A stretch of 5,932 bases of DNA, from IMG/VR virus record IMGVR_UViG_2563366939_000005; one strand, 5' to 3'. Below are positions 440 through 5,932 of the stretch, piece after piece. How positions within the stretch are numbered: position 1 is the stretch's first letter; the number at the start of each line of letters is the position of its first letter. The notes under the pieces were generated by a model that had not been told where the DNA came from, searched no databases, and saw nothing but the letters and a program-made list of their open reading frames with translations. The stretch is from a virus (taxonomy: Duplodnaviria; Heunggongvirae; Uroviricota; Caudoviricetes). A program made the position numbers and the translations under genes.

Positions 440-729
440 TACCAGTTCCTTTTGTCGTTCAGTTTCTTAAATTCATCAGCGCAATAGCTGGTGACTTCTG
501 TCGTTAATTTTGTCAGTTCATCCACGGAGGAAATTTGCTTATGAAATACAGCGCGTTTAACAAGTAAATTGACCACATCAGATAGGAGATTTAATTTATC
601 CGCATAAATGGCTATAGTTGATTCCACCATATCCCCAGTGTTTTTATCGCGTTTAATATCAGCTAGCGACAAATCACCATTTTTCATAACTGAAATCTTC
701 AACCAGTTATTAAGCAATATACTTTTCAT
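439..729 (-). CDS. Hypothetical small protein, 96 aa, AT-rich; candidate prophage accessory (moron) gene
   Basis: Uninterrupted ORF starting at ATG 729..727, coupled by ATGA overlap to the ORF upstream and by TAATG to the TraR-like gene downstream. GC about 35% by hand count (103 of 291), clearly below the flanking phage genes. No recognisable motif. Confidence 0.6.
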   Translation of the reverse strand: MKSILLNNWLKISVMKNGDLSLADIKRDKNTGDMVESTIAIYADKLNLLSDVVNLLVKRAVFHKQISSVDELTKLTTEVTSYCADEFKKLNDKRNW

Positions 730-971
730 TCGCTATATGCCCTCTCCGCAGAATCAATCATTTCCCGGCCATTATCGGTAATACAGAAACCTTCTCTTGA
801 TTTGGTCACAAGCCCCCATTTCCCCATTGCTATAAATGCTTTTTCCACACGACTAGGCCAGGAGTGGAAGACATCGCTTGAAGGATGTAGTGGAGTCTTG
901 TCATCTAATTTTTTAAGTAATGAAAGTTGATAATCCGTTAAGCGTTTCCTGAACCATTTTGTATTTGTCAT
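726..971 (-). CDS. Hypothetical small protein, about 81 aa (possibly P2 Orf81-like)
   Basis: The ORF track entry 726..977 begins at a TTG. The ATG two codons in (971..969) has an AGGAAA Shine-Dalgarno about 7 nt upstream, so I place the start there. GC about 41%. Stop overlaps the next start (ATGA). Confidence 0.55.
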   Translation of the reverse strand: MTNTKWFRKRLTDYQLSLLKKLDDKTPLHPSSDVFHSWPSRVEKAFIAMGKWGLVTKSREGFCITDNGREMIDSAERAYSE

Positions 972-985
972 CTCCAACTTTCCTG

Positions 986-1939: not shown

Positions 1940-2311
1940 TTAAGCCGCACGGCCATGTCTTGATTTGCTGTAACTAATGCGATTTTTCCAGTCATGCCAC
2001 TCGGTCGGAGCCTCTTCGACTAGTTGTGCCGCATACTTATCCCACTCACGACGATTTACCCATAATTCAGCTTTCCCTCTTGGTTTTAATGGGTCTGTCA
2101 TATAGAAGGCTGGCAGCTTTCCCGCTTTAGCCATTTCAGCCACCGCGCGTGGTGTCTTACCGATGTAAAGAGCAAACCCCTCTTTCGACAGCAAATCTGA
2201 TGGGCGCTCTGAAATCTGAATGCTTTTGCGTTTGGCTTCGTTTTCGAAACTTGCCTCATCGCTAGTTTGACAAGAAATTTCTACATTTGTCGTCACTTTG
2301 CTATCCTCCAT
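1940..2311 (-). CDS. cox: Cox-family excisionase / early-promoter repressor
   Basis: Residues about 40-110 (GFALYIGKTPRAVAEMAKAGKLPAFYMTDPLKPRGKAELWV…WHDW) align with P2 Cox as I recall it (FAKLIGKSTGAVRRMIDKGKLPVIDMTDP…). First gene of the minus-strand operon, divergent from C. Start is uncertain: ATG at 2311, or GTG at 2296 which has a GGAGGA Shine-Dalgarno at ideal 7-nt spacing. Confidence 0.8.
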   Translation of the reverse strand: MEDSKVTTNVEISCQTSDEASFENEAKRKSIQISERPSDLLSKEGFALYIGKTPRAVAEMAKAGKLPAFYMTDPLKPRGKAELWVNRREWDKYAAQLVEEAPTEWHDWKNRISYSKSRHGRAA

Positions 2312-2411
2312 AAGATTTGTAATTCACCAACTGGAGCCATCTAGAGCCTTTTTGAGTGCATCACAAATTGCCAAGTGGCCATATAATTGGAGATTAGCAA
2401 AATTATGTCAA
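2312..2411. promoter_or_regulatory. Divergent lysis-lysogeny switch region between cox and C (candidate promoters and operator repeats)
   Basis: About 93 bp between the divergent cox and C starts. Minus strand has a consensus -35 TTGACA (2411..2406, overlapping the C start codon), a 17-nt spacer and a -10-like AATTAT (2388..2383). A 9-bp direct repeat TNGAGCCNT occurs at 2332..2340 and 2342..2350, one helical turn apart. Plus strand has TATAAT at 2382..2387 without a well-spaced -35. Confidence 0.4.
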
Positions 2412-2704
2412 GTGAACAAAGCGAGAAATTAAAGCTCATCCGTGAATCCGAACGCCTTAAAACTAAGGAACTTGCTGAATTAATTGGAATTAATTACTAC
2501 ACATATCATGGATATGAATCAGGGAAATCAAAAATGCCTATGGAAGCAGGTATGAAGCTGTTTAAGCATCCACGCTTTCGCAAGTATCGTGACTGGTTCA
2601 TGTTTGATGAAATAGATCCCGAAGCTGGACAAATAGCCCCGGCTCTCGCACACATTGGGCAAGACTCAACAACCTTGCACCACTCAGACCAAAAGACTGG
2701 CTGA
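2405..2704 (+). CDS. C: P2 C-type immunity repressor
   Basis: The ORF track entry starts at TTG 2387; the ATG at 2405 gives a 99-aa product, the size of P2 C. The C-terminal third (…DEIDPEAGQIAPALAHIGQDSTTLHHSDQKTG) matches the conserved P2 C region as I recall it. Immediately upstream of int on the same strand, as in P2. Confidence 0.85.
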   Translation: MSSEQSEKLKLIRESERLKTKELAELIGINYYTYHGYESGKSKMPMEAGMKLFKHPRFRKYRDWFMFDEIDPEAGQIAPALAHIGQDSTTLHHSDQKTG

Positions 2705-2797: not shown

Positions 2798-3793
2798 ATG
2801 TCTATTAAAAAGCTCGATGATGGTCGTTATGAAGTGGACGTCAGACCGCAGGGTACAGATGGAAAACGTATCAGGCGGAAATTTAAAACTAAGGGTGAAG
2901 CTCAAGCATTCGAACGTCATGTACTGGTTAACTACCACAACAAAGAGTGGTTGGAGAAGCCAGCCGACCGCCGAACTCTTACAGAGTTGTTAGGCAGATG
3001 GTGGATATATCACGGAAAATCACATGAGCGTGGAGATATTGAACGGGGGCGTTTGACGACAATAATCGCCAAATTTGCAGAAATGGGAGTATCCAGAGCT
3101 GACCAGCTAACAAAGAAAACGATAACTGATTATCGCGTTGTAATGATGAACGATGGTCTAAAACCAGCCAGCGTAAATCGGCATCTGGCAATAATGAGCG
3201 GGATGTTCACCAAATTAATTGACGCCGGTGAATACCACTCTCACAACCCGTTCCGTGAGGTTAAGCGGTTACGTGAAGCTGTTACGGAAATGGCTTTTTT
3301 GTCCAGTGAAGAGATTACGCGGCTGTTATCCATGCTTGATGGTGATGAATTAAATGCGACTCTGGTCTGCCTTTCTACTGGTGGACGCTGGAGTGAAGTG
3401 TCTAATTTAAAAGCTGAACACATCATTAACCAGATGGTTACGTTTATGAAAACTAAAAACGGAAAGCGCAGGACAATTCCCGTTTCGCCGGACTTGATTA
3501 AACGGATCAAGACCAAAAATTCAGGCAGGCTTTTTAATGCCAGTTACTACAAAGTGCGCAACGCTCTCAGGGAAGTAAAACCCGATTTACCTGACGGACA
3601 GGCAGTGCATGTTTTGAGGCATACATTTGCCACACATTTTATAATGAATGGAGGTAACATAATCACATTGCAGCGCATCCTGGGTCATTCTAACATTCAG
3701 CAAACTATGACCTACGCACACTTTGCACCGGATTTCTTACAAGATGCTGTGACTCTTAACCCGGTGTCAGGAATGTCCATAATGCGTCCATAA
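2798..3793 (+). CDS. int: Tyrosine recombinase, P2-type phage integrase
   Basis: 331 aa with ATG preceded by GGAGGG. Catalytic signature present: box I Arg (LSTGGRWSEV), HxxR (HVLRHTFATHF) and the nucleophile Tyr (LGHSNIQQTMTYAHF). N-terminus MSIKKLDDGRYEVDVRP resembles P2 Int (MAIKKLDDGRYEVDIRP as recalled). Confidence 0.95.
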   Translation: MSIKKLDDGRYEVDVRPQGTDGKRIRRKFKTKGEAQAFERHVLVNYHNKEWLEKPADRRTLTELLGRWWIYHGKSHERGDIERGRLTTIIAKFAEMGVSRADQLTKKTITDYRVVMMNDGLKPASVNRHLAIMSGMFTKLIDAGEYHSHNPFREVKRLREAVTEMAFLSSEEITRLLSMLDGDELNATLVCLSTGGRWSEVSNLKAEHIINQMVTFMKTKNGKRRTIPVSPDLIKRIKTKNSGRLFNASYYKVRNALREVKPDLPDGQAVHVLRHTFATHFIMNGGNIITLQRILGHSNIQQTMTYAHFAPDFLQDAVTLNPVSGMSIMRP

Positions 3794-3824
3794 ACCAGAG
3801 TTAACTAGAGCCAATTGAAGCGAT
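3794..3824. other. Approximate prophage-chromosome junction (att core somewhere between the int stop and the 5' region of pflA)
   Basis: The last phage gene ends at 3793 and the host pflA frame opens at 3825. The core cannot be delimited without the other prophage end. The AT-rich stretch 3825..3860 followed by GC-richer sequence suggests the true junction may lie inside the annotated 5' end of the pflA ORF. Confidence 0.3.
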
Positions 3825-4622
3825 ATGAGTAATTTAACTAATTGTAATACAACAGAAAATACCGCTGCGGCGGGAGCTACCAAGTCAGTTATTGGTCGCA
3901 TTCACTCCTTTGAATCCTGTGGAACCGTAGACGGCCCGGGTATTCGCTTTATCACCTTTTTCCAGGGCTGCCTGATGCGCTGCCTGTATTGTCATAACCG
4001 CGACACCTGGGATACGCATGGCGGTAAAGAAGTTACCGTTGAAGATTTAATGAAGGAAGTGGTGACCTATCGCCACTTTATGAACGCTTCCGGCGGCGGC
4101 GTTACCGCATCCGGCGGTGAAGCAATCCTACAAGCCGAGTTCGTTCGCGACTGGTTCCGCGCCTGCAAAAAAGAAGGCATTCATACCTGTCTGGACACTA
4201 ACGGTTTTGTTCGTCGTTACGATCCAGTAATTGATGAACTTCTGGAAGTGACCGACCTGGTAATGCTCGATCTCAAACAGATGAACGACGAAATCCACCA
4301 GAATCTGGTAGGCGTTTCCAACCATCGTACACTCGAGTTTGCTAAATATCTGGCGAACAAAAATGTGAAAGTCTGGATACGTTATGTCGTAGTACCTGGC
4401 TGGTCTGACGATGACGATTCAGCTCATCGCCTCGGTGAATTTACTCGCGATATGGGTAACGTCGAAAAAATCGAGCTCCTCCCCTACCATGAGTTAGGCA
4501 AACATAAGTGGGTGGCGATGGGCGAAGAGTACAAACTCGACGGTGTGAAACCACCGAAAAAAGAAACCATGGAGCGAGTGAAAGGGATTCTTGAGCAATA
4601 TGGTCATAAAGTGATGTTCTAA
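3825..4622 (+). CDS. pflA: Pyruvate formate-lyase activating enzyme (radical SAM glycyl-radical activase)
   Basis: Radical-SAM CxxxCxxC motif (CLMRCLYC) and a glycine-rich SAM-binding stretch. From codon 21 onward the translation matches E. coli PflA as I recall it ([40 protein letters not shown]… to …[11 protein letters not shown]). The 5' end given is the only in-frame ATG; see the finding on the start codon. Confidence 0.95.
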
Positions 4623-4756: not shown

Positions 4757-5932
4757 TTACCAGTCGGCGTAAGGTATCAGCGGCTGCGGCGGTAAATCCA
4801 TGTCGCCCTGCCATCCGGCGGCGGAATACCGCACGTAGAGCAGGAAATGGCTGGGTGCGTAATCTTTCGCCTGCTGGATATCAATTGCCGTGCCGACAAA
4901 CCAGTTGGACGTGACGCGACGCTCAAGTAACGCCCGCGCCGTGTAGCCAAAGCCCTGACTGCTGCCGCCGGCGTTGGTCTGGCTGGCGGCATCCTCTTTC
5001 CAGTCCGTCGGGATCAGGTTCATCAGCGGATAACGCGGCATGGTTTTGGTGCGTGAATGCGACCACGAGCCAGACGCGCCCAGCTCCCACGACCAGTTTT
5101 CCGTCCGCTCCCGCCACATCACCGGTATGGCAAACGACAGGTATTCCTGCGGGCTGTAGTAACCGCCCTGACCGAGTGAGTAGCCACTCAGGTCTTTGTC
5201 GTAATGCCAGATCATGTTGTTCAGGCCGATTGTGACGCGGCGATTGTTCTGGTTGATGACCTTATAGTAATAGCCCGTCATCCAGCGCACGCGCCAGTTA
5301 TCTTCGACATTTTTACCGGTTAACTGGTCGCCGCTAAGCGATGCCCAGACGCCGTTCGCTTCACCTTTATCGTAGCTCAGACTTAGCCCCACGCCATCGG
5401 CACGCACACCGCCCCATTTTTTCCCGGTATTACCCGGGGAGTCTTTCTGTCCGCCGAAGGCCAGCAAGGAACTGGAGATGGGGCGACGATGGGCGTTAAC
5501 GGTGTAACCAAGCGGCCCGATATCGTCGCTGTAACTGATGCCGCCGACCACATCCACCACGTTGAAGCCCATCGGCGTGGTGCCGATATCCCAGCTCCAG
5601 ACGTCATTTCGCCAGCCGACCGCCACGCTGGCGCCGGAATCTGACTGGCTGCGGTTGCCGCTACAGTCCTGCAACGTACAGGTGCCCCAGTTGTTATCCC
5701 ATTTACCCTCAGCGTCGGCGGAAAAACTGCCGACGTTCATATTGACGAAATCACTGCGAAAGAACATCCGTCCGTCAGAATACGGTGCATCCACCTGCAA
5801 CATGGTGGTGTGCGCTTTCAGGTCGGAGTAACCACCGGTGCCGCTCGAGCCCCAGTAGTCGTGCTCAAGGGTGACGTTAAGATCCTGCTGGCGATAGAGA
5901 TCTGCCGCATCGCTGCGCACGCCGCGCTTCAG
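4757..5932 (-). CDS. Outer-membrane beta-barrel protein, C-terminal portion (resembles the BcsC-type polysaccharide exporter barrel); 5' end beyond window
   Basis: The frame is open from 5932 to the TAA at 4757..4759; the ORF track M at 5920 is a GTG inside a longer frame. Gly/Ser/aromatic-rich, barrel-like sequence ending in an aromatic residue (…PLIPYADW), typical of an OMP beta-signal. GC about 60-65% in the sampled 4757..4816. The BcsC assignment is from memory and tentative. Confidence 0.75.
   Translation of the reverse strand: MKRGVRSDAADLYRQQDLNVTLEHDYWGSSGTGGYSDLKAHTTMLQVDAPYSDGRMFFRSDFVNMNVGSFSADAEGKWDNNWGTCTLQDCSGNRSQSDSGASVAVGWRNDVWSWDIGTTPMGFNVVDVVGGISYSDDIGPLGYTVNAHRRPISSSLLAFGGQKDSPGNTGKKWGGVRADGVGLSLSYDKGEANGVWASLSGDQLTGKNVEDNWRVRWMTGYYYKVINQNNRRVTIGLNNMIWHYDKDLSGYSLGQGGYYSPQEYLSFAIPVMWRERTENWSWELGASGSWSHSRTKTMPRYPLMNLIPTDWKEDAASQTNAGGSSQGFGYTARALLERRVTSNWFVGTAIDIQQAKDYAPSHFLLYVRYSAAGWQGDMDLPPQPLIPYADW

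Follow-up and report, generated by a model that had tools for sequence, protein, structure and literature searches.

The window analysed here is a stretch of 5,932 nucleotides of viral DNA (IMG/VR record IMGVR_UViG_2563366939_000005; Caudoviricetes), in which the integrase gene (int) of a P2-like prophage lies directly upstream of pflA, the gene for the pyruvate formate-lyase (PFL)-activating enzyme PflA. The coordinates of the features discussed below are collected in Table 1. The open reading frame (ORF) of pflA encodes a full-length core with Radical_SAM and Fer4_12 domains (Pfam) and the CX3CX2C cluster motif, and its residues 21–265 are 100% identical to those of the Escherichia coli PFL-activating enzyme (PDB 3C8F), including CX3CX2C, whereas the initiator Met of the E. 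coli enzyme (3C8F / 3CB8) is replaced by 20 phage-encoded residues. ATG 3825–3827 is the sole start codon in this frame, the next ATG, GTG or TTG being that of the Met within the CX3CX2C motif. The codon at the position of the native start is AAG (3882–3884), followed by TCA GTT ATT GGT CGC (SVIGR...) on direct reading, and GGGAG precedes it at 3872–3876. All these coordinates had been given exactly by an initial annotation made from the window alone, which had also given E. coli PflA as a protein of 246 amino acids (aa) beginning MSVIGRIHS; in K-12-like references, pflA does start with ATG and encode 246 aa.

The initial annotation had further contrasted a weak Shine-Dalgarno (SD) sequence at ATG 3825 with a strong one at AAG 3882, and the duplex energies calculated against the anti-SD at the 16S 3' end agree with it (−2.1 kcal/mol before ATG 3825, −6.6 kcal/mol before AAG 3882 and −6.4 kcal/mol at the native pflA site of K-12). 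The context of ATG 3825 is AU-rich and nearly unstructured (minimum free energy of −2.7 over 70 nt). As for the GGGAG described there as ideal, the motif is present in the window but is specific to it: aligned E. coli junction copies read GGGGG, and A3875 in place of G is a synonymous GGA/GGG change in a Gly codon, so that the ideal SD is a private variant of this copy.

In an alignment with K-12, identity begins at 3884, and everything upstream is unrelated to the pflB-pflA intergenic region. This upstream sequence forms the int end of a P2-like (Peduovirus) prophage integrated between pflB and pflA, whose int is 98–99% identical at the DNA level to int in 20 Peduovirus genomes. When 301 nt spanning the site were used as the query, each of the 5426 complete E. 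coli genomes matched from the junction onward; about 5000 of them did not match before it, whereas 405 matched across it, always in the order of phage integrase followed by pflA. Strain 7/2 has a complete 34-kb P2-like prophage, P2 structural genes included, between pflB and pflA, with int beside pflA and ogr beside pflB. The attL was read from this strain; that of the window's own prophage falls beyond the 5.9 kb of the window.

Comparison of the K-12 attB, the attL of strain 7/2, the attR of the window and the phage attP (Table 1) revealed a 13-bp identity between attP and attB, the core GTCAGTTATTGGT at 3884–3896, which starts with the G of the native ATG and is limited by a T/A mismatch on the left (ATG vs AAG) and a CG/GA mismatch on the right. 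By this comparison, strand exchange must fall within GTCAGTTATTGGT, and the right boundary of the prophage must lie inside the core. The unoccupied K-12 locus reads ...CGCAATGTCAGTTATTGGTCGC, while attL of strain 7/2 reads ...CGCAATGTCAGTTATTGGT up to the boundary and GACATTTTTTGA beyond it, with the native ATG and the promoter region intact. Free phage genomes share ...CTACCAAGTCAGTTATTGGT joined to the same GACATTTTTTGA; three free Peduovirus genomes (vB_YpM_46, P24A7b and OU784746) carry the predicted attP ...GGGGGCTACCAAGTCAGTTATTGGTGACATTTTTTGA, contiguous in all three as ...CTACCAAGTCAGTTATTGGTGACATTTTTTGA..., and the match to the query ended at window position 3896 in 19/19 Peduovirus records that fully cover it. 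The core was present at both ends of the 34-kb prophage of strain 7/2. Thus, an adjacent tyrosine integrase, an attB, the core at attL and an attP in free phages, i.e. all the tested characteristics of a P2-like attR junction, were found.

The AAG at 3882–3884 consists of the AA of phage attP and the first base G of the core, and is therefore neither a substitution in pflA nor a sequencing error, as had been proposed from the resemblance to ATG. What the initial annotation had put only in parentheses, namely that the native start was lost and that initiation moved upstream onto phage sequence at an att junction, is supported by these comparisons, the move of initiation itself being the part that we infer. 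The core begins 90 nt downstream of the end of int. In free phages, the phage ATG opens an ORF of 27 codons in attP. After integration, the native pflA start heads an ORF of 8 codons at attL (MSVIGDIF and a stop), where, in strain 7/2, the native promoter, the ribosome-binding site (RBS) and the 'AT' of pflA are displaced by about 34 kb.

Table 1. Features of the window and att sequences compared (SD, Shine-Dalgarno; HTH, helix-turn-helix)
Feature	Positions	Strand	Basis or sequence
cox (excisionase / early repressor)	1940..2311	-	Pfam Phage_Cox, E=5e-30; Cox family annotation in matching lysogens
Pc-like promoter candidate, ATCACA-16-TATAAT	2360..2387	+	consensus scan, 10/12 matches; regional match count at chance level; putative function
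Pe-like promoter candidate	2411-2383	-	faces the Pc-like candidate
C-type immunity repressor	2405..2704	+	weak Pfam HTH_19; C protein/HTH annotation (99 aa) in phage P24A7b and lysogens
Tyrosine integrase (int), 331 aa	2798..3793	+	Pfam Int_N and Phage_integrase; co-directional with pflA
Two direct repeats GTCCATAA, 11 bp apart, over last int codons and stop	3775..3793	.	read from sequence
Chimeric pflA ORF, 265 aa	3825..4622	+	ORF list
Phage-encoded start codon and 20-codon leader, in frame with pflA	3825..3884	+	present in attP of free phages
SD-like GGGAG within leader	3872..3876	+	−6.6 kcal/mol against anti-SD
Core region, inverted repeat ACCAA-N8-TTGGT (putative core-type Int sites) around GTCAGTTATTGGT	3879..3896	.	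att-site comparison
AAG codon at native pflA ATG position	3882..3884	+	AA from phage P arm, G as first core base; attB/attL/attR/attP comparison
Host-derived part of pflA (native codons 6-246 and stop)	3897..4622	+	92.7% DNA identity to K-12, no amino-acid changes
attB (K-12)			...ACACCGCAATGTCAGTTATTGGTCGCATTCAC
attL (strain 7/2)			...ACACCGCAATGTCAGTTATTGGTGACATTTTTTGATATC
attR (window)			...GGAGCTACCAAGTCAGTTATTGGTCGCATTCAC
attP (vB_YpM_46, P24A7b, OU784746)			...GGGGCTACCAAGTCAGTTATTGGTGACATTTTTTGATATC

With a 107-nt query composed of the int-leader spacer, the leader and the core, the leader and junction were detected in 394 of the 5426 complete E. coli genomes (~7%) at 96–99% identity; none was identical to the window, and the closest copy reached 99.1%. 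In all six E. coli lysogen regions retrieved, pflA is annotated as a 265-aa coding sequence of 798 nt that begins at the phage ATG (WP_000067977 / WP_000067979), and the exact PflA protein of the window occurs on at least 1000 contigs. The same leader was found on 336 contigs of Klebsiella pneumoniae, and relatives of int at 76–99% identity are the immediate upstream neighbours of pflA in E. albertii, three Scandinavium species, Pseudescherichia vulneris, Rahnella ecdela and Citrobacter portucalensis. Integrase loci in IMG/VR were all 99% identical and mostly ended right after int, adding no diversity, and a leader-pattern scan added E. coli-type and Rahnella-type copies only, and a protein search with a short query gave mainly truncated fragments; further leader types were found via PflA homologues. 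Three of the 394 E. coli junction records are labelled as plasmid and not as chromosome.

Ten leader lineages, whose nucleotide identity to the window ranges from 62 to 75%, have all kept the ATG and the length of 20 codons. The frame of pflA contains no stop codon in any of them, whereas each of the other frames contains 1–5; by composition, an open frame is expected in 0.13–0.30 of shuffles per lineage. In addition, pflA was intact at 265 codons in every complete junction examined. Variable columns of the leader are spread over the three codon positions (13, 15 and 16 of 19), so what is conserved is the start, the length, the open frame and an N-terminal MSNLTxC-like motif, not the whole peptide, and the best-conserved part is the first ~22 nt. 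Eight of the 10 lineages have AAG where the native start would be; the Rahnella type has ATG there, preceded by a strong SD, and the prophage-free locus L112 has GTG. An alignment of 30 sequences was the basis of an AlphaFold2 model (mean pLDDT 85.5), in which residues 1–17 were modelled as coil with pLDDT <50 and the first strand started from residue 24; the phage-encoded leader is thus predicted to be disordered.

PflA of the Providencia type (L017–L019; P0063, P0068 and P0011) bears a native Thr-rich N-terminal extension of 16–20 residues, encoded directly after pflB and preceded by a good SD. The similarity of this extension to the phage leaders is weak and of low complexity (z ~2.6; 0.8% of shuffles reach the score). 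It hints, as a lead only, that the attP leader may descend from the extended pflA 5' end of a Providencia-like host.

The fusion of leader and pflA was also observed without a prophage at several loci, where a 3' remnant of int, the leader and an intact pflA are retained (L112, L114, and L116 and L118 of Salmonella). The order in L112 and L113 is pflB, terminator, decayed int 3' end, leader and pflA, and that in L114 is similar. In Salmonella enterica (L116, L117 and L118), pflB is followed by a SopD-family gene encoded on the opposite strand, a decayed int 3' end, the leader and pflA; here the int 3' end comprises ~300 nt with 70% identity to window 3601–3900, arm-type repeats included, and the pflB terminator is not followed by the native promoter region of pflA. 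The SopD-family effector gene seems to be what is left of the cargo of an ancient P2-like prophage integrated at this att site.

The 265-aa PflA of Salmonella with the leader MSNLTNCITNESVAVTADKK, whose predicted tryptic peptide is SNLTNCITNESVAVTADK, occurs on at least 1000 contigs and is named 'MULTISPECIES ... [Salmonella]', as compared with 4 contigs for the 246-aa form of the same core. The leader-bearing form is apparently the normal PflA of Salmonella. Salmonella is a classical formate- and gas-producing fermenter, which argues that leader-PflA is expressed and active. The initial annotation had considered that the 265-aa form might be the normal annotated protein; this holds for the retrieved E. 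coli lysogens and for Salmonella generally, but not for K-12-like references. A 258-aa protein of Salmonella (P0055) was considered as a case of a shorter in-frame leader and rejected, because comparison with P0117 makes an alternative start call in a 20-codon leader more likely.

These results show that 3825–3896 is the attR of a P2-like prophage inserted in the first codons of pflA, and we consider highly likely the account built on it, in which the phage ATG and leader would keep pflA expressed. The tyrosine integrase recombines the 13-bp core common to attP and attB inside the pflA start codon. Integration leaves the native promoter, RBS and 'AT' at attL, and pflA receives the phage ...ACC AA instead, by which its start position becomes AAG. 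In the proposed mechanism, the ATG of the P arm at 3825, located 19 codons upstream in frame, would then start a PflA of 265 aa composed of 20 phage-encoded residues and native residues 2–246. Since the int stop lies only 31 nt upstream, reinitiation at ATG 3825 is conceivable.

Conservation of the ATG and leader might instead reflect constraints on the P arm of attP as DNA (Int arm, IHF or Cox sites) and not translation. The leader is indeed located between the arm-type repeats (3775–3793) and the core (3879–3896), where recombination proteins bind, and both the well conserved first ~22 nt and the variable sites distributed over all codon positions agree with such constraints. However, they leave unexplained why a single frame is devoid of stops in all lineages when the others have 1–5, and why the ATG and the open frame are retained in copies with a dead int, for instance on at least 1000 contigs of Salmonella. 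Because of this persistence where int is dead, a purely DNA-binding account of leader conservation is disfavoured, and we regard it as unlikely.

Another possibility is that the leader is not translated and that ribosomes initiate internally via GGGAG at the non-canonical AAG 3882 or ATT 3891, or that both products are made. The SD-like element in the window matches the native site in strength, and most lineages have a purine-rich motif there, which precedes a true ATG in the Rahnella type (−9.4 kcal/mol) and GTG in L112. On the other hand, few near-cognate codons initiate as poorly as AAG in E. coli, and the Citrobacter-type leader has no SD-like motif at that position (+0.9 kcal/mol). Moreover, AAG is kept in 8/10 lineages, including the fixed form of Salmonella, and the upstream frame is always open, which counts against internal initiation because the frame would then be unnecessary; the chance of this explanation appears slim.

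It could also be argued that integration simply inactivates pflA, with the in-frame ATG and leader being coincidental and the lysogens lacking a PFL-activating enzyme. Integration removes the native promoter, RBS and start, the SD at ATG 3825 is weak, and the insertion of ECA29, a prophage of the P2 family, into the same target gene pflA of Pectobacterium atrosepticum is summed up as a disruption in a review (Evans et al. 2010, as cited in PMC13492144). In L016 (SRR2175557 contig, 1800–2261), a decayed junction where the int fragment is 42% identical and the leader MNKITDCITTDPSDLVEDKK has diverged, pflA is frameshifted after codon ~53 in a read-level assembly, which could be an assembly error or a real pseudogene. 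Against inactivation, the ATG, length and open frame are kept in 10 diverged lineages, no complete junction examined has a damaged pflA, the junction is carried by ~7% of complete E. coli genomes, and the fusion has outlived the prophage in several lineages, being the standard PflA in Salmonella. We therefore judge inactivation to be very improbable.

The local appearance, with AAG one base from ATG and an SD-like GGGAG 5 nt upstream, suggests that the region before pflA is normal except for position 3883, at which T was mutated to A or misread in sequencing. This reading is refuted, because the sequence upstream of 3884 lacks pflB-pflA intergenic homology and is contiguous with phage int, the same AAG context occurs in 394 E. 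coli genomes and in free-phage attP, and the native ATG and promoter region are intact at the attL of the lysogen.

Several points weigh against an expressed leader-PflA fusion at attR. The SD before ATG 3825 is very weak, and it is weak across all lineages. Since all leaders are equally long, conservation of the frame rests on the absence of stops and not on compensated indels, and the 5' third of the leader could owe its conservation to a role at the DNA level, such as the binding of recombination proteins. That PflA is translated from ATG 3825, that the fusion is active and that a phage-side promoter serves it is inferred, unlike the junction anatomy, its prevalence and the frame conservation, which were read directly. 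No promoter above chance was found in consensus scans of the window and the decayed copies. Our literature search, beyond whose reach lay the older papers on P2 integration sites, found no description of this junction or of the leader fusion, and the only precedent that it yielded, ECA29 in Pectobacterium, is described as disrupting pflA.

If pflA is expressed from the phage ATG, its transcription would come from the phage side, either by read-through from Pc-C-int or from a promoter in the int 3' end or the P arm. The lysogenic transcript of P2 is Pc-C-int. There is no terminator-like site between int and pflA, and the hairpin AAAAAAGCCCCTCGACTGAGGGGCTTTCTG, which follows attP in the phage, moves to attL upon integration, so that the Pc-C-int transcript could read into pflA. 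Decayed copies lack C and most of int, and would thus also need a promoter located in the 3' end of int or in the P arm. A candidate promoter, TTAACC-16-CATAAT at 3756–3783, was rejected; it coincides in part with the arm-type repeats, and Salmonella has not kept its −10 element. We tentatively propose, as a possibility that falls short of being probable, that a 'pflA rescue' module of the P arm, consisting of transcription signals, start codon and leader, is under selection, re-expresses and possibly re-regulates PflA in lysogens, and was captured permanently by Salmonella.

The arrangement resembles P2-like integration (P2, 186 and WPhi, with tyrosine integrase and Cox) in having the same order of cox, C, int, attP and ogr, a short core with flanking partial identity, and arm-like direct repeats on both sides; here, the empty site and both junctions were recovered. 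Instead of the P2 locI site or a tRNA gene, the present target is the first codons of a protein-coding gene, for which the P arm supplies an in-frame start and leader. An attP that carries a substitute for the displaced part of its target gene is found in phage 21 and e14 at the icd 3' end and in phages at tRNA 3' ends. In these cases a near-identical 3' end is duplicated, whereas here the 5' leader is non-homologous, the chimera is longer and the expression signals are exchanged. The junction would be a case of a prophage repairing its integration target, of a less common kind in which the 5' coding end and the expression signals are replaced and which is fixed in Salmonella.

The closest experimentally characterised analogue is the HK022 prophage at torS, in which a phage promoter between the int stop and the junction drives torS and changes its regulation, an arrangement that many wild E. 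coli share (Carey et al. 2019, eLife, PMC6814406). In both systems the prophage is located just upstream of a host gene, the int end faces the gene, and the native promoter is separated from it. The HK022 site is intergenic, however, and leaves the torS coding sequence untouched, whereas here the crossover occurs within the pflA start codon, so that the phage must supply a start codon and an N-terminal peptide.

As regards the rest of the prophage, the genes upstream of the junction are those of a P2 early region, encoding Int, an HTH repressor, Cox, DUF2732, DUF5405, a TraR-type zinc finger and B, and ogr lies beyond attP. The C gene is upstream of int on the same strand, and its ATG at 2405 gives the 99-aa form. 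The position of the Pc-like and Pe-like promoter candidates fits the face-to-face Pc/Pe layout of P2. The repeats GTCCATAA at the end of int are kept in all diverged junctions, and similar repeats, GTCCACA / GACCACA, occur in the P' arm at attL and attP (L004, reverse complement, ~8660–8700; L005, 2330–2370); both sets are probably arm-type Int binding sites. The segment 720–997, including an 83-aa ORF (726..977, minus strand) without a Pfam match, has no counterpart in the otherwise collinear prophages of isolate AF3 and strain 7/2; this part of the P2 early operon, flanked by the genes for DUF5405 and DUF2732, is a slot of variable gene content. At the usual variable loci of P2, the prophage of strain 7/2 (L004; 7534–10435 and 26651–27877) has genes for a reverse-transcriptase family protein accompanied by an HTH partner, for an FRG-domain protein and for a Shedu nuclease, all likely anti-phage defence cargo.

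Downstream of pflA, the minus strand of 4757–5920 encodes the C-terminal portion of a cellulose-synthase outer-membrane protein of the BcsC type (BCSC_C, E=2e-120). K-12 and strain 7/2 have ycaK/ycaN/ycaM there instead of bcsC, and bcsC-bcsB lies next to pflA in only 1 of the 5426 complete E. coli genomes (AF3, ~93% identity). The pflA allele of the window (3884–4622) differs from E. coli alleles by 52–59 nucleotides and no amino acid, and E. albertii is no closer (74 differences). This divergence is mosaic, with 0–5 differences per 100 nt over the first ~400 nt and 11–15 per 100 nt thereafter, a pattern that points to recombination with a breakpoint near 4285 and to a host belonging to a diverged lineage of Escherichia.

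The junction explains an apparent start-codon defect, for which curation could flag such a pflA as a pseudogene or an error, and the comparison gives the exact attB, attP and core of a very common prophage family of E. coli. As far as expression can be deduced, a central anaerobic enzyme would bear a phage-derived N-terminus, and depend on phage-side expression signals, in ~7% of complete E. coli genomes and apparently throughout Salmonella. If the P arm does act as a 'pflA rescue' module, it would represent a lysogenic conversion of anaerobic fermentation comparable to HK022-torS, and in Salmonella the decayed junction by the SopD-family gene would supply the N-terminus and the expression signals of the normal PflA of the genus. 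If phage control alters PflA levels, lysogeny would change formate production and mixed-acid fermentation in the gut.

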